8,711 nt of DNA from a virus. Its lineage: Duplodnaviria > Heunggongvirae > Uroviricota > Caudoviricetes. Positions 1-8,711 of this stretch are shown one piece after another. Below the pieces are notes generated by a model. The model saw only the letters and a program-made list of their open reading frames with translations, did no database searches and was not told the DNA's origin. The stretch lies in IMG/VR virus record IMGVR_UViG_2695420643_000013; one strand, written 5' to 3'. The position numbers were made by a program, and so were the translations under genes. Every line of letters starts with the position of its first letter. The first letter of the stretch is position 1.

Positions 1-440
1 CGCCACCAGTCATCCTCACGCTCAAAATCCGGCATATCAATTCCCGCCAGATGGTAGGCATCCCGGAACAGCGTGTAACAGTCCGTCACCCCGTGCTCAA
101 AGAGCCGTCCTGTCAGATGTGGCACACAGCGGAATTTATGAATGTCCCCCCGGCAGACCAGCCACCAGGACAGTGCACTTTTTATCTGCAGCCGCCGGTC
201 GGCCTCGCTCAGCCAGGGCAGACCACCGGGATGACTGTGGACCAGTGCCACAATCTCCCCCTGCATCTCTGCCCGCAGCCAGTCTTCCGGTGCAATACGA
301 AAATACGCCTCCGGCTCTGCAGAGATATTCACACAAGGGATATACCGCTCCCCCTCCGGCGTTCTCACCACGAAGCCACACGACTCCGCAGGCACACACC
401 GCCGGGCATGCGCCAGAATCGCTGATTCAGTCTGTGTCAT
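1..440 (-). CDS. K: Tail assembly protein K, lambda gpK-like (N-terminal JAMM/MPN domain plus start of NlpC/P60 domain); partial, 3' end lies beyond window start
   Basis: Manual minus-strand translation from ATG at 440..438 gives the same first 99 residues as the 1766 copy (MTQTESAILAHARRC...HSHPGGLPWLSEAD...WWLVCRGD) and continues IHKFRCVPHLTGRLFEHGVTDCYTLFRDAYHLAGIDMPDFEREDDWW with no stop to position 1. HSHPx7SxxD is a JAMM motif; DCYTL matches the NlpC/P60 catalytic Cys region as I recall it from lambda K. Lies immediately downstream of L, as in lambda. Confidence 0.85.
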   Translation of the reverse strand, partial: MTQTESAILAHARRCVPAESCGFVVRTPEGERYIPCVNISAEPEAYFRIAPEDWLRAEMQGEIVALVHSHPGGLPWLSEADRRLQIKSALSWWLVCRGDIHKFRCVPHLTGRLFEHGVTDCYTLFRDAYHLAGIDMPDFEREDDWW

Positions 441-1149
441 AAACCGGGATTTACTGCGAAAGTTTATTAATGGAAAGGAAACCGCCAAAATTAGCCACCA
501 TGCCGCGCATCTCACACCCGCGCATGCACTTGCTGCATCTGTCCTTACGGATATCGGTGGTGGGTTTATCGAACTCATCCGCCACAGCCCCGCCCGTGTA
601 ACCACACTCATCAGAGCGGTAGGTCCACATACAGGTGTTCGCCAGCATGATGCGACCGGGAAACAGCGCCCCGTCCGTCTCGGTCGGTGTGGCCAGCACA
701 AACGAGGCCGTCATGGCCGTCAGCGATGACATCTGCTCCACCACCCACCGGTCAGTCAGCTCCTGCTCCGGGTCGGCCTCCGGATTGCCTGCCACAAAGT
801 TCACCGCATCCAGAAAACGCGCATACACCCGGCGGCGGACCACCGTGGCACCCACCAGGCTCTGCAAATCCTCCGCCATCCCGGTGACAAGACCGAACAG
901 ATTGGACACCGTCAGCGACGGGCGGGCACTGCTGCCCTTTCCGTTCATCTCAAAGCCACTGCCCTCAATCGGGTACGCCTGATATTGCCGCCCCTGCCAG
1001 GTCACCGGCTCCCTTTTTTCATTCAGCTCATTGCAGAAAAAATACCGCTCACCGCCCTGCACCGTCAGGTCGATTTCCCAGAGCACCACCCGCGGTGACT
1101 GCTCTGACTTAACCGACTCGTTCAGGCTTTCTTCGTGAATGTCCTGCAT
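145..1149. repeat. Direct repeat, copy A of the duplicated K(5')-L segment (continues at lower identity through the M-like region to about 1470)
   Basis: 145..440 matches 1471..1766 at offset 1326 with 2 mismatches in 296 nt (by eye). 451..1149 matches 1772..2470 at offset 1321, with a 5-nt indel in the L-K spacer. The encoded L proteins differ at 14 of 232 residues. Confidence 0.9.
451..1149 (-). CDS. L: Minor tail protein L, lambda gpL-like (copy 2 of 2)
   Basis: 232-aa ORF, same length as lambda L and with the Cys-rich C-terminus (CSKCMRGCEMRG...NFGGFLSINKLSQ) I recall from lambda gpL. About 94% aa identical (14 differences) to the ORF at 1772..2470. Start overlaps the stop of the upstream ORF. 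Confidence 0.9.
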   Translation of the reverse strand: MQDIHEESLNESVKSEQSPRVVLWEIDLTVQGGERYFFCNELNEKREPVTWQGRQYQAYPIEGSGFEMNGKGSSARPSLTVSNLFGLVTGMAEDLQSLVGATVVRRRVYARFLDAVNFVAGNPEADPEQELTDRWVVEQMSSLTAMTASFVLATPTETDGALFPGRIMLANTCMWTYRSDECGYTGGAVADEFDKPTTDIRKDRCSKCMRGCEMRGMVANFGGFLSINKLSQ

Positions 1150-1766
1150 CAGTTCACCACCTGCTTAAACTCCGCGCTGAACTCAACGCGCAACATCCCG
1201 ACCCGCGCAGACCACCCGGCACAGGTCACCTTTATCTGCCGGTATGCATAGGGTGGCTTCCACAAAAATGCCTTCCAGCCCCCGTGCTCTGCCAGAAACG
1301 CTTCCAGATGCCGGGCCTCCTCCCGGGTCACGGAAAGCGTCACCCGGTATGTTTTCAGGTCAGCATTCAGCCCTGCCGCCATACGCTGTGAGTACCCGTC
1401 ACCAAAACGCACTTCACGCACCGATGGCTGCGAGTTCACCTCCATATCCGGCTTCACTTTCCAGCGAAAATCCCCCCGGCAGACCAGCCACCAGGACAGT
1501 GCACTTTTTATCTGCAGCCGCCGGTCGGCCTCGCTCAGCCAGGGCAGACCACCGGGATGACTGTGGACCAGTGCCACAATCTCCCCCTGCATCTCTGCCC
1601 GCAGCCAGTCTTCCGGTGCAATACGAAAATACGCCTCCGGCTCTGCAGAGATATTCACACAAGGGATATACCGCTCCCCCTCCGGCGTTCTCACCACGAA
1701 GCCGCACGACTCCGCAGGCACACACCGCCGGGCATGCGCCAGAATCGCTGATTCTGTCTGTGTCAT
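1149..1766 (-). CDS. Chimeric ORF: K N-terminal JAMM/MPN domain (residues 1-99) fused in frame to minor tail protein M (from about residue 4 to the end)
   Basis: 205-aa ORF. Residues 1-99 are encoded by sequence near-identical to 145..440 (K 5' end). From residue 100 (FRWKVKPDMEVNSQPSVREVRFGDGYSQR...RVEFSAEFKQVVN) it aligns along its full length to the M ORF at 2470..2811 and, by recollection, even more closely to lambda M. Junction maps to about 1470/1471. Whether it is expressed or functional is unknown. Confidence 0.7.
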   Translation of the reverse strand: MTQTESAILAHARRCVPAESCGFVVRTPEGERYIPCVNISAEPEAYFRIAPEDWLRAEMQGEIVALVHSHPGGLPWLSEADRRLQIKSALSWWLVCRGDFRWKVKPDMEVNSQPSVREVRFGDGYSQRMAAGLNADLKTYRVTLSVTREEARHLEAFLAEHGGWKAFLWKPPYAYRQIKVTCAGWSARVGMLRVEFSAEFKQVVN

Positions 1767-2470
1767 TGGATTTACTGCGAAAGTTTGTTAATGGAAAGGA
1801 AACCGCCAAAATTAGCCACCATGCCGCGCATCTCACACCCGCGCATGCACTTGCTGCATCTGTCCTTACGGATATCCGTAGTGGGGTTGTCGAACTCATC
1901 CGCCACCGCAGGACCGTTATACCCGCATTCATCTCCCCGGTAATCCCACATACAGGTGTTCGCCAGCATGATGCGACCGGGAAACAGCGCTCCGTCCGTC
2001 TCGGTCGGTGTTGCCAGCACAAACGAGGCTGTCATGGCCGTCAGCTCTGACATCTGCTCCACCACCCAGCGGTCGCTCAGCTCCTGCTCCGGGTCCGCTT
2101 CCGGATTGCCCGCCACAAAATTCACCGCATCCAGAAAACGGGCATACACCCGGCGGCGGACCACCGTGGCCCCCACCAGGCTCTGCAGGTCCTCCGCCAT
2201 CCCGGTGACCAGACCAAACAGATTCGACACCGTCAGCGACGGGCGGGCACTGCTGCCCTTCCCGTTCATCTCAAAGCCACTGCCGTCAATCGGGTATGCC
2301 TGGTACTTCCGCCCCTGCCAGGTCACCGGCTCCCCTTTTTCATTCAGCTCATTACAGAAAAAATACCGCTCACCACCCTGGGCCTTCAGGTCAATTTCCC
2401 AGAGCACCACCCGCGGTGACTGCTCTGATTTAACCGACTCGTTCAGGCTTTCCCCGTGAATATGCTGCAT
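1471..2470. repeat. Direct repeat, copy B of the duplicated K(5')-L segment (continues at lower identity through M to 2811)
   Basis: See copy A. Homology of the K part stops abruptly at 1470/1471, where the sequence switches to the M-like reading frame. Confidence 0.9.
1772..2470 (-). CDS. L: Minor tail protein L, lambda gpL-like (copy 1 of 2)
   Basis: 232-aa ORF in the canonical position directly after M (stop/start overlap at 2470). Sequence family as for 451..1149. Confidence 0.9.
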   Translation of the reverse strand: MQHIHGESLNESVKSEQSPRVVLWEIDLKAQGGERYFFCNELNEKGEPVTWQGRKYQAYPIDGSGFEMNGKGSSARPSLTVSNLFGLVTGMAEDLQSLVGATVVRRRVYARFLDAVNFVAGNPEADPEQELSDRWVVEQMSELTAMTASFVLATPTETDGALFPGRIMLANTCMWDYRGDECGYNGPAVADEFDNPTTDIRKDRCSKCMRGCEMRGMVANFGGFLSINKLSQ

Positions 2471-2811
2471 CAGTTCACCACCTGCTCAATCGTACAGCTG
2501 AAATCACTGTACCGGACGTTATCCGTGACGCTCCACTCCCGGCACACCACCCTCACCGTCCGGTTATGTTTCGGCGGTCGCCACAAAAAGGCACGGTAAC
2601 CACCATGCCAGGATAAAAATTCATCCAGCCAGCGCCGGGTTGACTCATCCGTCACCCGGAACACCGCCTGAAACGTCTTCAGTTGAGGATTCAGTCCTGT
2701 GGGGCGACGCTGTTCATAACCGTCACCAAACCGTACCCTCGCCACCGACGGTTTCTCACTCACCTGCATCCCTTCACGCGGGACCAGATGCAGCGTTTTT
2801 ATCTCAGCCAC
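2470..2811 (-). CDS. M: Minor tail protein M, gpM family (divergent from the M-like part of the chimera)
   Basis: 113-aa ORF between tape measure and L, the size and position expected for gpM. Shares the RFGDGY, HGG and AFLW-PP motifs and the C-terminal QVVN with the M-like half of ORF 1149..1766. Start at 2811 overlaps the H stop by 8 nt. Confidence 0.85.
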   Translation of the reverse strand: MAEIKTLHLVPREGMQVSEKPSVARVRFGDGYEQRRPTGLNPQLKTFQAVFRVTDESTRRWLDEFLSWHGGYRAFLWRPPKHNRTVRVVCREWSVTDNVRYSDFSCTIEQVVN

Positions 2812-5800
2812 TCAGCATTCCTCCGTCACGTCGCATGGACAACATCACCGCCTGCACCCGCTGGTCAATCAGCTGCACAAGACTGCCTGCCGCCTCCGGC
2901 CCTATCTGGCCATTAGTCCCGTCATTCTGAATGGCGATATGGTAGACCGGGGAATACACCAGGCCCGCACTACCGTTCATACTGCCCACCGCTCGCACAC
3001 CCAGCGAGCCATCCGCCGCCCGGGTCAGGGGCATAATGGCTTCAGGACCGGCCTCCCCCATCAGTCCCGCCCCTTTTGCAAAGGCAAAGTACGTGGGCGT
3101 ATCCACAATACTGTTGCTGTACGCACTCAGGTTTGCCGAGGTATACACGCCGCCTTTTGCATTGGCCACCGCCCCGCCCAGCCAGTCACCAATGCTGCCG
3201 AGAAATCCTCCCGCACCGGACATACCGTTTGCCGCCGTCTTAATTCCGTTGACAATCGCGGCATTCATAAGAACTTTTGATATTTCCTGCAGCACTGATG
3301 AGGCCCAGCTGCGCCATTCCACTTTATTTCCGTTCAGCATCTCCGTGATGTTATTCACCATCCCTGAGATACCCTCCGTCGCAAGCTGTGCTGCCTGTGA
3401 GGCGTAATCGGACGCATTATCCACCCAGTTACTGAATCCCTCCTGCAGCCCTTTCTGCCAGTCCGCACGCTGCACATCCGATTCGGCATAAAAGGCTGCC
3501 TGGTCCTTAAGGCGTTCGCTCAGATACTGCGCGTTCTGTGCCCGTGCCTGTCTGTAAAAATCCTCACTGATATCCCCGGTCTGATACTGAGACTGAAGGT
3601 CCGCATCCTTCTGGCGGAAGCTGTCGCGGATCTGCTGCAACTCCCGCATGCGTTCCCTGGCTCGTTCTCCCTGCCCGTATCCCAGCAGTTCGGCTTCATT
3701 TGATGCACGCGCAGCCACATTATCATTCTTCAGGGTCTCTTCCCGGGATCGCAACTGTTCCCGGATTTTTTGCTGGTCAATCAGGGCCGCGTTACGCAGC
3801 AGTTCCTGCTTCTGCATCTCCGTCAGGGTTTTCAGTTCGCCCTGCGCAGTCTGGTACTTCAGCTTCGCCAGCTCTGTATTCTGACCCGCCAGTGCCAGTT
3901 GCTCTTTCTGCTGCTTCAGTAGCCGGGAAAAACTGTCTTCCGCTTTTTCCGTCTCTGATTTTCCACCCCGGGATTTAGGTTTGTTCGCCTCGTTATTACG
4001 CCAGGCTTCCAGGGCATTACTGATATAACGCTGTCTCGCCTCCTGATACGAATCCCCCACAAAACCAAGGTCATCCGCCGCATACCCCAGCCGGGCACGC
4101 TCTTTTTCCTCCCCCTTCAGTCGGGACAGGGCCAGCTCACGCTCTGTTTTTGTCAGGGCACTCTGCTGTTTATCATCCAGGGTGGCCTGTGGCAGCCGTA
4201 ACGGTACATTCACCAGCCCCTGACGCTGCTGAAGCAGTTCATTCCCCAGCCCCAGCAGACGGTTGAATTCCGTATGCTGACCGTTCATAACCAGCATGGA
4301 CTGGTACACCTTATTCTGCTCTGCCGCCTGCTGACGAATTAACGCCACACGACGGTCTTCCAGCCCGGCAAGCACATCCTGAATGGACTGCGCTTTTTCC
4401 TGCATCTGTGCCAGACGGGACTGCTCAACGGCAAGCTGCTCTGTTGCCTGAGCAAGCCCTTCCGTTACGGTCTTCACCGAGGTCAGATGGTTTATCATGA
4501 ATCCGTCACCGGTCGTCCAGCCCGGGTTCGCCAGAACATACTGATATCCTGCGATTTTTTCCTGCAGGGATTTCACCCGACTGGCCTGTTCATCAATCAG
4601 CCGGTTCTGCTCTGTCAGCGCCGCCCGTGTTCGTCCTTCATTATCTGAGGCTTCAGGCAAAGACATTGACGGCGTTTTATGCGCGATTTCATCTATCGTC
4701 AGTGCATACTGGCGCGCAGACTCCCTGGCCTGCTCCTGATTCTGGTACAGCGTGTACCATGCTGCAGCCCCCAGCATCACCAGTCCGGGTACGCCACCAA
4801 CCAGCCCCAGCGCACCGCTCATCAGACGTGAGCCCACCGCCGTTGTACTGTTCAGCGCATTCTGGGCGGCGCTTCTGGCAGCAATATTTCTGTTCAGGCG
4901 TTCCTGTGTGGCCGCCAGACGGGCCTCTGCAGCAATCTGCATCTCCGTCCCGCGGGCTGCCGCCACGGCCTGCTGAGCACGGTACACGGCTGCCCTTGCC
5001 CGCGCTGTGGCAATCTGCGTTCCCCTGAACTGTGCTTCCGCCAGTGCAACTTCATTACGTGCAGCCGTCACAAGTCCTGCCGTGGCAGACATCGCTCCGG
5101 AGGCCATATTGCCAAAGTACCGGGCAACCCCGACGGCAACCAGCGCACCCACAGCTGTTGCCACATTATCAATCTGTCCGGCAACACCGTTCAGCACGCC
5201 GGAGAGCGTTTTTGTCACCCCGCTGGCCTCATTCACTCCGCCCACCCAGGCCATAAAGGCGTTTTCCACCTTCGTGATACTACCGGAAACCGTTTCTGGC
5301 ATGGCGGCATATTCATCACGCAATACCCCCAGCTGGCTGATTAACGCAGGAACGACTTTATCCGCCGTCAGTTGACCATCGTCCGCCATCGCCTTCAGAT
5401 CTTTACGGGCCACGCCCATGCCTGCAGCCAGTGCACGAATGATCCGGTCACCACTTTCATTGACCGAATTAAATTCCTCACCGCGCAACACACCCTGTGC
5501 CAGCGCCTGGCTGAACTGGGTGATCACCGAACCCGCCTCAGCCGTACTGGCACCGGAGATTTTCAGCCCCGTGGAAATGGCCTCCGTCACCTTCAGCACA
5601 TCATCAGCACTGTAACCATATTCACGCATCGAGGCAGCCGAACGGGCAAACAGGGCCGCATTATCCGAAAAAGCGGTACCTGTCCGCTGGCTGATATCCA
5701 TCAGCACTTTCTGTGATGACGAAAATTCATCAGATGACTGCGACGCCTGTTTCAGACGGGCATTCACGGAACTCCACTCATCAGCCAGTGAAATCAGGTG

Positions 5801-6046
5801 TCCGGTGGCAAAGGCACCGGCAAATGCGCCAGCCATTCCGACAGCAGAACCGCGAATTTCCGTCAACTGGCTGTTCAGTTCTGCCAGGGCACGTCGCTGC
5901 TCCCGGGCTGCCGCAGCGGCCTGACGCCCGCCATTCTGCAGGGTCCGGTAATATTCACTGCCCATACGGGAAGCACGCTGGAGCTCCGACTGGAATGACT
6001 GTGAATTTGCCGAAATTTTGATAATCAGTTCACGTAACGTCGCCAT
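2804..6046 (-). CDS. H: Tail tape measure protein, lambda gpH family
   Basis: 1080-aa ORF, Ala/Gln/Arg-rich with long predicted helical stretches and Gly/Ala-rich hydrophobic segments. C-terminus (NDGTNGQIGP...RRDGGMLSG) matches the lambda H C-terminus as I recall it. Sits between the G/T chaperone pair and M. RBS-like GGAGAAAGGTGA lies directly upstream of the ATG at 6046. Confidence 0.95.
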   Translation of the reverse strand: MATLRELIIKISANSQSFQSELQRASRMGSEYYRTLQNGGRQAAAAAREQRRALAELNSQLTEIRGSAVGMAGAFAGAFATGHLISLADEWSSVNARLKQASQSSDEFSSSQKVLMDISQRTGTAFSDNAALFARSAASMREYGYSADDVLKVTEAISTGLKISGASTAEAGSVITQFSQALAQGVLRGEEFNSVNESGDRIIRALAAGMGVARKDLKAMADDGQLTADKVVPALISQLGVLRDEYAAMPETVSGSITKVENAFMAWVGGVNEASGVTKTLSGVLNGVAGQIDNVATAVGALVAVGVARYFGNMASGAMSATAGLVTAARNEVALAEAQFRGTQIATARARAAVYRAQQAVAAARGTEMQIAAEARLAATQERLNRNIAARSAAQNALNSTTAVGSRLMSGALGLVGGVPGLVMLGAAAWYTLYQNQEQARESARQYALTIDEIAHKTPSMSLPEASDNEGRTRAALTEQNRLIDEQASRVKSLQEKIAGYQYVLANPGWTTGDGFMINHLTSVKTVTEGLAQATEQLAVEQSRLAQMQEKAQSIQDVLAGLEDRRVALIRQQAAEQNKVYQSMLVMNGQHTEFNRLLGLGNELLQQRQGLVNVPLRLPQATLDDKQQSALTKTERELALSRLKGEEKERARLGYAADDLGFVGDSYQEARQRYISNALEAWRNNEANKPKSRGGKSETEKAEDSFSRLLKQQKEQLALAGQNTELAKLKYQTAQGELKTLTEMQKQELLRNAALIDQQKIREQLRSREETLKNDNVAARASNEAELLGYGQGERARERMRELQQIRDSFRQKDADLQSQYQTGDISEDFYRQARAQNAQYLSERLKDQAAFYAESDVQRADWQKGLQEGFSNWVDNASDYASQAAQLATEGISGMVNNITEMLNGNKVEWRSWASSVLQEISKVLMNAAIVNGIKTAANGMSGAGGFLGSIGDWLGGAVANAKGGVYTSANLSAYSNSIVDTPTYFAFAKGAGLMGEAGPEAIMPLTRAADGSLGVRAVGSMNGSAGLVYSPVYHIAIQNDGTNGQIGPEAAGSLVQLIDQRVQAVMLSMRRDGGMLSG

Positions 6047-6062
6047 TCACCTTTCTCCGGGC

Positions 6063-6087
6063 AAAAAAACCTGCCACAGCAGGTTTT
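6063..6087 (-). terminator. Perfect palindromic stem-loop with flanking U-tract between T stop and H start (terminator-like or mRNA stability/processing hairpin)
   Basis: Plus strand aaaaaaa-cctgc-caca-gcagg-tttt. On the minus-strand transcript: AAAACCUGC UGUG GCAGGUUUU followed by UUU, i.e. a 9-bp stem (5 GC pairs plus 4 AU pairs), 4-nt loop and U-run. Located in the 50-nt gap between T stop (6097) and the H ribosome binding site. Confidence 0.4.
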
Positions 6088-6096
6088 CATCATTAT

Positions 6097-6411
6097 TTAT
6101 GACATTGCTGCAAAGCTCAGCGCGTCTTCCAGCGCCGCAAACGGATCTGACTCCACTTTATCCTCATCCTCGCCCCAGCAGAGCATGGCGTCCTCCAGTG
6201 AAACATTCATCCCCTGCGCCCCGAAAACCGCTTTCACGATCTGCGCATTACGGATATCCCCGCGCTCATCGCCCAGCGGGGACACCCTGTCGAACTCCAT
6301 CCACATCATCGCCTCGCTCGCACTCAGACTGTGGCCCAGTTCGGATAAGGTGCGCCCCAGACGGAGCGCAAGTCGCATCAGAAAGAGAATTTCCGGGCGG
6401 GCTACTTTTTT
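6097..6411 (-). CDS. T-frame extension of the tail assembly chaperone (G-T fusion product, made by -1 programmed ribosomal frameshift from G)
   Basis: The -1 frame relative to G is open from the slippery heptamer at 6411..6405 through the 93-aa ORF 6097..6378. Read by hand: after the slip the sequence runs AAA AAA GTA GCC CGC CCG GAA ATT CTC TTT CTG ATG CGA CTT, joining the MRLALRLGRT frame. The G then G-T arrangement just upstream of the tape measure gene is conserved in long-tailed phages. Confidence 0.8.
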   Translation of the reverse strand, partial: KKVARPEILFLMRLALRLGRTLSELGHSLSASEAMMWMEFDRVSPLGDERGDIRNAQIVKAVFGAQGMNVSLEDAMLCWGEDEDKVESDPFAALEDALSFAAMS

Positions 6412-6774
6412 CTGGCCGACTCTGCATCAGCGATCAGTTCCAGTGCCTGACGCAGCAACCGGGCATGTACCGGACCATAGACGGCCAGCACCTGCTCACG
6501 GTCGTCCGGAGTGAACACCCGCTGCAGATCCGTATCAAACAGGACATCGCAGAACAGCGTCACATCCGCTTCCAGGTTACGGCGGGTTTTCGCCACCACC
6601 GACAGGGTATCGTCATCCTCTCCATCACCATTGAGCACTTCCTGCCACAGATACCAGGCCTCTGCCGAAGGCTCCCGCAGCACCACGCTGACATTACCCC
6701 ATTCCGGCACCTTCACCGTTTTATGACGAAACCCTGACAGTCTGGCCAGCGCCAGCGTTTTCAGATCCTTTTTC
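6402..6774 (-). CDS. Tail assembly chaperone (gpG analogue)
   Basis: ORF between the major tail and tape measure genes. I place the start at the internal ATG 6774..6772 (MKKDLKTLALARLSG..., 124 aa) rather than 6824, because it follows the V stop (6791) and is preceded by an AAGGGGA Shine-Dalgarno about 8 nt upstream. Acidic protein ending ...ESARKK with the slippery site in its last codons. Confidence 0.8.
6405..6411 (-). promoter_or_regulatory. -1 programmed ribosomal frameshift slippery heptamer A_AAA_AAG (G to G-T)
   Basis: Minus-strand sequence AGA AAA AAG TAG: the heptamer A AAA AAG is in the X_XXY_YYZ register of the G frame, immediately before the G stop codon, and the -1 frame is open into the T ORF. 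Same heptamer as the well-known dnaX frameshift site. Confidence 0.75.
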
Positions 6775-6790
6775 ATGATGACCCATCCCC

Positions 6791-7507
6791 TTATCCGGCG
6801 GCTGCGCTCACTGTCACGGTGCATTCAACAGACGTCACACTCTGTGCTTTCTCTGCCGAATCGGTCACCACGCAGGTATATTTCCCCGCATCAGCGGACT
6901 GCGCACCTGGCTTACTGAAGGTGTCTGTCGTCTGCCCGTCAACCGGCTGACCATCCTTCTTCCAGGCGTATTTATACGGCGGCGTTCCCCCGTTGGCACT
7001 GACTGACATTGTCAGCAGCGCACCTGTATTCACGGTAAGTGTTTTATCCAGATTTTTCACAAACGCCAGCGGTACCACAAAGGACACCGGTTTGCCTTTC
7101 ATACGCAGTGAAAACGTTGCTGCCACCACGCCGTTGGTACCGGATGACCAGGTGTGCTGACGCACTTCCGCCAGGAACTTAAAGCCCTTACCGGACGGAA
7201 ACAGCACCTTAAACGCATACAACGCGTCATTGTCATAGGCATCACGCAGGGCGTTCTGGGCCTGATTCAGATAAAAATTACCCGACATGGAAATCTCAGA
7301 CGACGCCCCCAGACCGTTGATGTTCTCCTGCTCGGTGGAGCAGAGCGTGGTCACATCAATATCCTGTTTCTGACCGGCGGTGAACTGGACTTCCTTGATG
7401 GTGCAGTCCAGGCGCAGATATTCCGCCTTATCCATAGTTTCAGCAGTCGCCGGGGCAGATGAAATCATCACCTGCGTCAGCTGTGAGCGTTCATACAAAG
7501 CAGACAT
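6791..7507 (-). CDS. Major tail (tube) protein with C-terminal Ig-like domain
   Basis: 238-aa ORF directly upstream of the G/T chaperone pair, the conserved position of the major tail protein. Strong RBS (AGGAGG, 7 nt upstream of the ATG). The C-terminal 80 aa or so (GGTPPYKYAWKKDGQPV...AGKYTCVVTD...VECTVTV) have the pattern of an Ig-like domain, as on lambda gpV and other phage tail tube proteins. Confidence 0.8.
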   Translation of the reverse strand: MSALYERSQLTQVMISSAPATAETMDKAEYLRLDCTIKEVQFTAGQKQDIDVTTLCSTEQENINGLGASSEISMSGNFYLNQAQNALRDAYDNDALYAFKVLFPSGKGFKFLAEVRQHTWSSGTNGVVAATFSLRMKGKPVSFVVPLAFVKNLDKTLTVNTGALLTMSVSANGGTPPYKYAWKKDGQPVDGQTTDTFSKPGAQSADAGKYTCVVTDSAEKAQSVTSVECTVTVSAAAG

Positions 7508-7521
7508 TCTGCCTCCTGATA

Positions 7522-7546
7522 ATAAAAAACCCGCACGCGGCGGGGT
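7522..7546 (-). terminator. Intrinsic-terminator-like hairpin between the tail terminator gene and the major tail gene
   Basis: Minus-strand transcript ACCCCGCCGCGUGCGGGUUUUUUAUU: 5-bp all-GC stem (CCCGC/GCGGG), 5-nt loop, then six U. Lies in the 66-nt intergenic gap after the TGA of ORF 7574..7918 and before the AGGAGG RBS of the major tail gene. Confidence 0.5.
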
Positions 7547-7573
7547 ATGGGTTTTGTAGAAAAAAAGAAAAAG

Positions 7574-7918
7574 TCACACCGTGACCTGAAACTCCAGGGT
7601 TGCACGGTAACAGCGGTTTTCCGGAATATAGTCCTGCATTTCACTGACGGATCCCGGGGCCAGCAGCATTATGGCTTCACGGGCGTCCTGACGTATCTGA
7701 CGCGCCTGCGTCACAGTCCCGGCATAAACGTCTATCTGCACCGACACTGAGGACTCCGCCTGCCCGCCCATCACGTCCGCAGACACCGATGAAATCAGGC
7801 TGAAAACCACCCACGGAAGCGCCACCGACGGCCTGCCATCCAGCAGGGGGACCACATACGGGTACACCTGCCCGCCGGCAAGATGCGCCAGATGAGGATA
7901 CAAATCCGCCTCCGTCAT
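7574..7918 (-). CDS. Tail terminator-like protein (gpU functional analogue), assignment by position and size
   Basis: 114-aa ORF immediately upstream of the major tail protein gene. Start overlaps the upstream stop (ATGA). Small tail-terminator proteins occupy this slot in lambda/HK97/SPP1-type gene orders. I do not recognise specific motifs. Confidence 0.55.
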   Translation of the reverse strand: MTEADLYPHLAHLAGGQVYPYVVPLLDGRPSVALPWVVFSLISSVSADVMGGQAESSVSVQIDVYAGTVTQARQIRQDAREAIMLLAPGSVSEMQDYIPENRCYRATLEFQVTV

Positions 7919-8361
7919 CGTCTCAGTACCTCATCAATGGCCCGGTTCATCCGTGCAATCGCCACTTGCGCTGCCTGTTCACTGCGCACATCAAACGCCG
8001 GACGCACAAACGGGTGCGGTGGCATATTCACGGTCCCCATTTCCACAAACCGCCAGTAGAAAGCATTGCGCGGGTTATCCGCCTTCATGGTGTTATCGCT
8101 GTTACCGGTGTCCGGATTAACACCCCGGATATGCACACCGGATTCCATCCCGCCATCGCGGGAGCGCCGGGAAAGGACCACCACATTGCGGCGCAGTTTT
8201 CCCCTGCGTACCGGTGCCCGTGACACCACTTCTTCTTTCAGCACATTCGCACCCGCACGGGTTGCCTCACGCAGCACCCGGTTATTTTCTGCACCACTCA
8301 GAAGCTGCAAATCGCGGCTGATGTCCTCCAGCCCCGAAAAATCCAGCAGGGTTTCGATCAT
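7915..8361 (-). CDS. HK97 gp10-like neck/tail-completion protein (tentative)
   Basis: 148-aa ORF in the neck gene cluster. The C-terminal region (NMPPHPFVRPAFD) resembles what I recall of the HK97-gp10 family. Translationally coupled on both sides by ATGA overlaps. Confidence 0.55.
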   Translation of the reverse strand: MIETLLDFSGLEDISRDLQLLSGAENNRVLREATRAGANVLKEEVVSRAPVRRGKLRRNVVVLSRRSRDGGMESGVHIRGVNPDTGNSDNTMKADNPRNAFYWRFVEMGTVNMPPHPFVRPAFDVRSEQAAQVAIARMNRAIDEVLRR

Positions 8362-8708
8362 TTTTCACCTCCCAGCCGACAGAGAATTTCCAGACGTCCG
8401 CCGGTCGCATCCGGCACGGGCAGCCCGACAACGTTCAGGATCCGGTCACGCCAGGGACCACTCAGCACATGAAGTCGTGACGCTGCCGTGATTTCCCGAC
8501 CGGACTGACCGCGCACCCAGATGCGGATTTCCGCCTGCGCCATTTCCGCACCGGACTGCATCCGCTCCCGGCTGCTCCTGCCACGGATATCCGCATGAAT
8601 TTTCCCGCATGACACCCATTCTTCCGTCATTTCTCCGGCAGCATTACGGGTTAACACCGGGTTCAGAACACTTATCATCTGTGTCAGACGACCTGCAGAT
8701 ATTGCCAT
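8358..8708 (-). CDS. Head-tail adaptor / head closure protein (SPP1 gp16-like family, tentative)
   Basis: 116-aa ORF, first gene of the neck cluster in the window. Size, position and general pattern are consistent with phage head-tail joining proteins. Start is 3 nt from the window edge, so the true start could lie upstream. Confidence 0.5.
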   Translation of the reverse strand: MAISAGRLTQMISVLNPVLTRNAAGEMTEEWVSCGKIHADIRGRSSRERMQSGAEMAQAEIRIWVRGQSGREITAASRLHVLSGPWRDRILNVVGLPVPDATGGRLEILCRLGGEK

Positions 8709-8711
8709 TCC

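Follow-up and report, generated by a model that had tools for sequence, protein, structure and literature searches.

The window analysed here, the whole stretch of 8,711 nucleotides of a tailed-phage genome (IMG/VR record IMGVR_UViG_2695420643_000013), carries on its minus strand genes for head closure, a gp10-like protein, tail completion and the major tail protein, followed by G, T, H, M1, L1, K'::'M2, L2 and K2, in that order. The arrangement H-M1-L1-K'::'M2-L2-K2 amounts to ~1.32 kb more than the canonical H-M-L-K, and K'::'M2 is a single reading frame in which the first part of a K gene runs into most of an M gene. Its upstream neighbour is L1 and it is followed by L2 and then K2, where the canonical order is L-K-I, and, unlike a normal M gene, it does not directly follow the tape measure gene. 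The two sides of the joint are referred to as the A arm (from position 1471 upwards) and the B arm (from 1469 downwards), after the two putative parental genomes discussed below. The features of the locus are:

1149..1766, minus strand: K'::'M2 fusion ORF (ORF list, Pfam domains, AF2 model with two confident domains).
1471..1766, minus strand: K' segment, K codons 1-98 and the first two bases of codon 99, the end of the A arm; 0 mismatches to K of L003.
1470..1470, minus strand: junction base, T on the coding strand, third base of codon 99 (GAT); in neither parental lineage.
1149..1469, minus strand: 'M2 segment, M codons 4-109 and the stop, the part of the B arm that is transcribed first; identity with L014 and L002.
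451..1149, minus strand: L2, second intact minor tail protein L, 232 aa, B arm; Pfam Phage_tail_L, E 1.6e-91.
1..440, minus strand: K2, 5' part of an intact K, codons 1-146, running off the window start; from translation.
1772..2470, minus strand: L1, first intact L copy, 232 aa, A arm; ORF list and alignment with L2.
2470..2811, minus strand: M1, intact 113-aa M, A arm; Pfam Phage_min_tail, E 9.1e-29.
2804..6046, minus strand: H, tape measure protein, 1080 aa, HK97-like, A arm; exact protein match.
145..1165, no strand assigned: direct repeat copy 1 (K N-terminal part, L, shared M end); self-BLAST and repeat finder.
1471..2486, no strand assigned: direct repeat copy 2; self-BLAST and repeat finder.

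The fusion ORF is intact, encoding 205 aa from an ATG start, with the stop included in its span. Residues 1-99 are the same as the first 99 residues of the intact K (247 aa) encoded by a related prophage (L001) and of the window's own second K copy, the translation of which continues past residue 99 as IHKFRCVPHLTGR..., as in an intact K, and residues 100-205 (FRWKVKPD...QVVN) are the same as residues 4-109 of the 109-aa M of L002, the 321 nt of the M part having 100% identity with the M gene of L014. The start codon of M and its first three residues are thereby replaced by 99 residues of K, and the native translation start region of K is kept and matches L003 exactly. An in-frame chimera of the K MPN domain and M, with an intact JAMM motif and a retained stop/start overlap with L, is what the initial annotation had described, and all three points are borne out: both parts are identical to known genes; all the JAMM residues can be read from the translation, E19 (in PAESCGF) and H68-S-H70-x7-S78-x2-D81 (HSHPGGLPWLSEAD); and the TGA stop of the fusion (1151-1149) overlaps the ATG of L2 (1149-1147) as TGATG, as is also seen at the M1/L1 joint at 2470. 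The agreement of both halves with known genes, at 100% protein identity, is far beyond chance, and neither half has decayed, the K and M parts being unchanged at the protein level with respect to the parental types.

Pfam assigns Prok-JAB (PF14464) to residues 3-102 of the fusion (E 2.5e-15; 56.8 bits against a cutoff of 25) and Phage_min_tail (PF05939) to residues 100-204, covering profile positions 3-108 of 108 (E 1.6e-36; 125 bits), and the best PDB sequence match of the M half is the lambda 'Tail tip protein M' 8IYK (E 2.3e-52), with four further entries also matching. No match to NlpC/P60 (PF00877) was obtained in the fusion with Pfam. In the intact K of L001 the JAB match ends at residue 105 and NlpC/P60 occupies residues 111-224, so the junction lies only approximately at the MPN-NlpC/P60 boundary where the initial annotation had placed it, its exact position being ~6 residues before the end of the JAB match; the fusion is thus devoid of about the last 6 residues of that match, and its own JAB match stops 3 positions short of the profile end. 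Trypsin sites at R97 and R101 leave only GDFR across the joint, and the expected Lys-C peptide is SALSWWLVCRGDFRWK.

The extra length of the locus is a direct repeat. Self-BLAST aligns 145-1165 with 1471-2486 at 93.5% identity with 58 mismatches, and the repeat finder resolves this into a K part at 99% (296 nt) and an L part at 91% (699 nt). K' and K2 differ by 2 nt and no amino acid, L1 and L2 by 60 of 699 nt and 14 amino acids, and in the alignment of M1 with the M2 part 47 of 106 residues are identical. M1, L1, L2 and K2, which flank the fusion, are all intact as far as the window reaches. The base-level quality of the window is good, since the neighbouring ORFs are all intact and H and L2 are exact copies of widespread proteins; the exact H protein is listed in 2331 blocks of the collection and the exact L2 protein is present on many public contigs. 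In all 10 of the 10 places shown for H, a single M and a single L are followed by one K, or by IS66 in its place (L007, L009), and then by I and J, and the 20 places shown for exact H or L2 likewise contain single M and L genes and then K or an IS66 element instead. In the type A reference prophages a single H-M-L-K set is present and the corresponding span is ~1321 bp shorter. Neither the duplication nor a two-parent origin was part of the initial annotation, and both are key to the identity of the locus.

Comparison of the two sides with related sequences shows that they have separate closest relatives. Window positions 1471-8711 match L003 (CP157141, a prophage of STEC-type strains) at 99.90% with 7 mismatches and no gap, and L001 at 99.85%, and positions 1-1469 match L014, which has a lambda-type M and tape measure, at 99.46% and the best RefSeq complete genome at 98.7%. 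The switch between lineages is abrupt, at 1470|1471, and the flanks of the window trace to two different lineages that have been joined. On the coding strand the joint reads ...TGCCGGGGGGA-T-TTTCGCTGG..., where K relatives have GGGGGGA-C/A-ATTCAT (GAC or GAA) and M relatives have ATGAAAAC-C-TTTCGC (codon 3 = ACC). Comparison of the parental sequences revealed no homology or microhomology between them at the joint. Either the M parent carried the junction T as a private synonymous SNP, or the base was altered in the course of joining.

Other origins were considered and set aside. A simple tandem duplication of one locus is ruled out by the differences between the copies, 60 of 699 nt in L1/L2 and 47 identities in 106 aa in M1/M2, and by the separate closest relatives of each arm. 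A microhomology-mediated join is ruled out since the parents have no bases in common at the joint; K AAATTCCGCTG and M ACCTTTCGCTG resemble each other imperfectly at a site 9 nt further downstream than the break in K, but this similarity does not yield the junction that is seen. As a possible source of the junction T, an M allele with ACT as codon 3 was also sought, and 0 of 3382 M copies from 1468 complete E. coli genomes match it.

We also searched for other instances of the junction and of the fusion protein. A junction-spanning query of 141 nt found no sequence covering both halves in 5,426 complete E. coli genomes, 50,697 phage records or 72,556 plasmids; thousands of K halves and M halves matched separately, ending or starting at window positions 1469-1471. 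Exact junction k-mers were absent from IMG/VR, the GTDB species genomes and the JGI metagenomes, and the exact fusion protein from ~15 billion proteins. At the level of domains, no protein with both PF14464 and PF05939 was found among the best 120 of 255 word-index matches in 5.8 billion clusters, and an exhaustive phmmer search of 1.84 billion representatives gave no coverage of both halves among the best 150 of 2136 matches, each of which covers one half. K-like JAB proteins of ~105-130 aa, possibly incomplete, do occur among the cluster representatives. Judged by these searches, the combination of JAB with Phage_min_tail is recorded nowhere else in the collections covered. The database search that had been proposed for other K-MPN::M fusions thus returned none among the matches listed, and the statement that K-MPN::M is not a known tail component stands, no two-domain protein being among the best database matches listed.

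Taken together, these data make it likely, in our view, that the locus is a recent illegitimate, out-of-register join of two lambdoid genomes and that the fusion protein is an incidental, non-selected product of that join. The setting would be an E. coli of the STEC prophage pool in which two lambdoid genomes, phage or prophage, recombined independently of homology. Genome A, with an HK97-like tape measure and a 113-aa M, would have given the segment from the head-closure gene through K codon 99, and genome B, with a lambda-type 109-aa M, that from M codon 4 onward, namely M, L, K and presumably I and J. With A broken downstream of the break point in B, ~1.32 kb would be carried twice, as M1-L1-K'::'M2-L2-K2, and a join that was in frame by chance would link the JAMM/MPN domain, without NlpC/P60, to the M domain without its first three residues. 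Such a join could have arisen by exchange between A and B during lytic growth, when phage genomes are replicating, by a deletion between neighbouring co-oriented prophages, or by a tandem duplication in a B-type phage followed by homologous crossover within the near-identical K'; these three routes are inseparable from the 8.7 kb window. Among the points against the proposed join are that the junction base at 1470 is explained by neither parent and that the locus is a single sequence without read-level support.

The alternative that survives best, although we consider it unlikely, is that the junction is not biological and is instead a library-preparation chimera or an assembler mis-join among near-identical lambdoid prophages. 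The presence of the junction in no other sequence set searched and the one untemplated base at the junction are consistent with this, as is the finding that contigs with the exact H protein are mostly 5-20 kb short-read pieces, the same size class as the window, and that comparable K chimeras lie in imperfect drafts (L023 with Ns, L026 with fragmented genes). Graph- and overlap-based assemblers, however, mis-join at common sequence, and the parents are not homologous where they meet; only rarely would a random chimera bring together two tail operons that point the same way, with the reading frame kept and an offset of just 1.3 kb. Moreover, the remainder of the window carries no errors in its proteins, and the 58 mismatches between the repeat copies argue against a repeat-expansion error of one locus. 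We infer that the event is real and recent.

The fate of an out-of-register join of this kind can also be considered. RecA- or Red-type recombination at the K'/K2 or L1/L2 repeats would delete 1.3 kb and restore a canonical H-M-L-K, and the duplicated arrangement is thus expected to be unstable. A 113-aa M beside the exact L2 protein occurs naturally in L015-L021, and since the two are already paired there, the collapsed hybrid should be viable. Whether phage mosaics arise from random illegitimate joins that are then counter-selected is a standing debate (PMC3945230), with a random cut-and-paste model set against relaxed homologous recombination, and the present case fits a picture in which illegitimate joins are raw material that is trimmed later.

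To characterize the protein that such a join would encode, the fusion was modelled as a monomer with AF2. Single-sequence AlphaFold gave a pLDDT of 37 and a 46-row alignment was used instead, with which the model reached a pLDDT of 91.7 and a pTM of 0.64, with two confident domains whose mutual orientation is undefined. The structure prediction of the fusion alone that had been suggested at the outset thus has both halves predicted to fold. By Foldseek, the M half of the model superposes on lambda gpM (8iyk_E) with TMt 0.85 and an rmsd of 2.5, and the MPN half on P. furiosus JAMM1 and on MPN domains of the Rpn11/CSN5 type, over ~100 columns with an rmsd of ~3 and TMt 0.57, matching ~100 of the 130 residues of PfJAMM1. 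In view of the intact ORF, the native K start region and the predicted folding of both halves, the fusion protein may well be made.

The tail biology of lambda indicates what such a protein would meet. gpM is the distal tail protein, a hexamer through which the V tube is connected to the L/J hub, with 109 of 109 residues ordered, and gpK was undetected in lambda virions by mass spectrometry (PMC10721106). In Ur-lambda, gpM residues K2 and W6 contact the side-fibre collar (PMC12617516), which places the N-terminus of M on the outer face. The JAB and NlpC/P60 domains of K are predicted to process the ubiquitin-like protein I (PMC1779556). By analogy with these structures, an N-terminal extension of M would be sterically not absurd, yet it would be placed at the collar site and would replace residue K2.

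We consider it very unlikely that the fusion is a working, selected gene, either an M subunit with an outward JAMM/MPN domain in the tip ring or an MPN domain tethered to the assembling tip and acting on the ubiquitin-like I or another substrate. Several points speak in favour of this: the ORF is intact, with the native start of K and a stop/start coupling with L, the catalytic JAMM residues are complete, the AF2 model has two well-folded domains that superpose on the gpM of 8IYK and on P. furiosus JAMM1, the outer position of the M N-terminus in Ur-lambda could let an extra domain project (PMC12617516), the break points are near domain and gene boundaries, and the K-like JAB proteins of ~105-130 aa among the cluster representatives, possibly incomplete, could be taken in the same sense. 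However, no second example at any divergence is among the matches listed, so that there is no sign of conservation or selection, and the fusion is redundant beside the intact M1 and K2 genes. In addition, gpK is not a component of the lambda virion (PMC10721106), the 99-aa N-terminal domain would occupy the Stf collar site, M2 shares only 47/106 residues with M1, the copy that goes with the phage's own V and H, and the flanking repeats make for an unstable arrangement. A very slim chance is given to the specific outcome in which the fusion protein is produced and takes a place in the distal tail ring through its M domain, with or without M1 subunits beside it, so that six or fewer JAMM/MPN domains are displayed outside at the V-M junction, or in which MPN activity is supplied in cis to the assembling tip.

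The break points leave the reading frame intact and fall 6 residues short of the JAB match end and at codon 4 of M, a combination that would be rare if breakage were uniformly random. Although made post hoc, this observation counts against a purely incidental product and hints at some filter for a tolerated or useful one.

The preferred explanation thus remains the illegitimate join, with an incidental fusion protein. The initial annotation had left the choice between a dead recombination scar and a novel fusion in the tip complex, and a scar is favoured over a tail component by the two lineages with their abrupt switch, by the partial tandem duplication that leaves M, L and K intact on either side, and by the failure to find the junction in any other collection searched; 'dead' is too strong, given that the ORF is intact with the K start and may be made. 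As M1, L1, L2 and K2 cover every tail function, we regard the fusion as probably made from the late operon but dispensable and unselected. Nothing in this analysis gives positive support for a selected function.

If real, the locus is a snapshot of a fresh homology-independent, out-of-register lambdoid join in which the duplication is still unresolved and the parents are identifiable within ~0.5%, a step in phage evolution that normally escapes observation. It bears on what share of phage mosaicism has its beginnings in random illegitimate joins, to be cleaned up afterwards by selection and homologous recombination. The fusion is also a ready-made construct for asking whether the MPN domain of K folds and acts without its NlpC/P60 partner, and whether gpM tolerates an N-terminal extension on its outer, collar-binding face. 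Were the fusion to be present in the ring or at the tip, it would be a distal tail protein decorated with an enzyme, which would be a new kind, observed at the moment of its origin. The phenomenon itself, recombination scars and mosaic joints in lambdoid prophages, is a known one, with a domain combination unrecorded elsewhere and no new system, and its importance is modest, the fusion being a one-off without sign of selection.

Compared with lambda K (TAPK; JAB/MPN and NlpC/P60), residues 1-99 of the fusion are the same, including the start region and the E...HxH...S..D motif, but the whole NlpC/P60 domain and the ~6 last residues of the JAB match are absent and the next gene is L2, not I. 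Compared with lambda gpM (PF05939; 8IYK/8IYL/8K35/8XCG/9E7M), residues 100-205 correspond to M 4-109, with a near-full profile match, the predicted gpM fold and the TGATG kept; gpM, however, is normally a single domain of ~109-113 aa with a free N-terminus, encoded after the tape measure gene, whereas the fusion has 205 aa, is without residue K2 and adds a 99-aa domain. In siphophages, 'evolved Dit' proteins consist of a Dit ring domain with an extra globular module; in the known cases such modules, either inserted carbohydrate-binding ones or domains at the C-terminus, are shared by whole groups of phages. The fusion likewise combines a distal tail domain with an extra module, but here the module is an N-terminal peptidase-type domain and has been seen once.

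A parallel in gene arrangement is the K(1-134)::L(87-232) chimera of a Shigella sonnei draft (P0041, L023), which has an order H-M-L-K'::'L-K-I and, like the present locus, an in-frame K' joint created by a partial tandem duplication of the tail module. It differs in that the partner is L, that the repeat copies are 98% identical and thus of a single lineage, and that the contig contains Ns, which makes its validity uncertain. Other tail-gene chimeras in public data, besides K'::'L in L023, are T::M (L024/L025), H::M and V::K, and the T::M case is a deletion scar present in both the NCBI and Logan assemblies. As proof of a biological class, such database chimeras were set aside as a weak analogy, those examined in context lying in draft assemblies.

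With lambdoid mosaic joints in general, the present joint has in common an abrupt switch of lineage without homology at the joint and, on the M side, a position near a gene boundary. Established mosaic joints are in register, with one copy per gene, whereas the joint of the fusion is 1.3 kb out of register and has retained the duplication. In this respect the locus resembles an intermediate still awaiting resolution more than a mosaic that has become fixed.

Ten loci (L013-L022), among the matches listed, have a protein identical to the second L copy of the window (L2, 451-1149). In L013 and L014, the latter being the prophage to which the B arm was matched, the identical L protein adjoins a 109-aa lambda-type M, and in L015-L021 it adjoins a 113-aa M and the tape measure is HK97-like. 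The presence of an exact L2 beside either type of M argues that the M/L boundary is itself a natural mosaic joint. At the K/M joint there is a single base, window position 1470 (T on the coding strand), that differs from both parental lineages; it makes codon 99 of the fusion GAT, which is synonymous with the GAC found in the second K copy of the window. The first M copy (M1) has GTG as its start codon and shares its first 8 nt with the 3' end of H (2804-2811). In the B lineage, the start codon of the lambda-type M is ATG.

Further upstream in the tail module, the G gene ends in ...GCC AGA AAA AAG TAG (6402-6411 region, minus strand), and the following features were read:

6411-6405, minus strand: slippery heptamer A AAA AAG, directly 5' of the G stop
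6404-6402, minus strand: G stop codon TAG
6097-6378, minus strand: T ORF, downstream of G and in a different frame

A programmed -1 G-T frameshift is expected of lambdoid tail chaperones, and from its sequence the slippery site is predicted to be the site of this frameshift.

In several STEC genomes, the tail module akin to 1471-8711 is split by IS3-family or IS66/ISEc22 elements (matches H35-H37, H39, H41 and H132-H136; loci L007 and L009), and in L007 and L009 an IS66 element occupies the expected position of K.

Further lambdoid tail-gene chimeras were observed in public data (L024/L025 6001-6507; proteins P0166, P0138 and P0003). These include a T::M chimera in which the tape measure is deleted, present in an NCBI assembly and again in the one built by Logan from run SRR12217148, an H::M chimera of 405 aa, a V::K chimera of 370 aa and, on a 4.8-Mb contig, a K with an in-frame internal duplication of 35 aa.

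A Shigella sonnei draft contig (CXFV01000035, which includes Ns; locus L023, 6001-6840) has K(1-134) joined in frame to L(87-232) within the gene order H-M-L-K'::'L-K-I, and the repeat has a period of 845 bp with copies that are 98% identical. Compared with the window, this is a partial tandem duplication of like kind in the same tail module.
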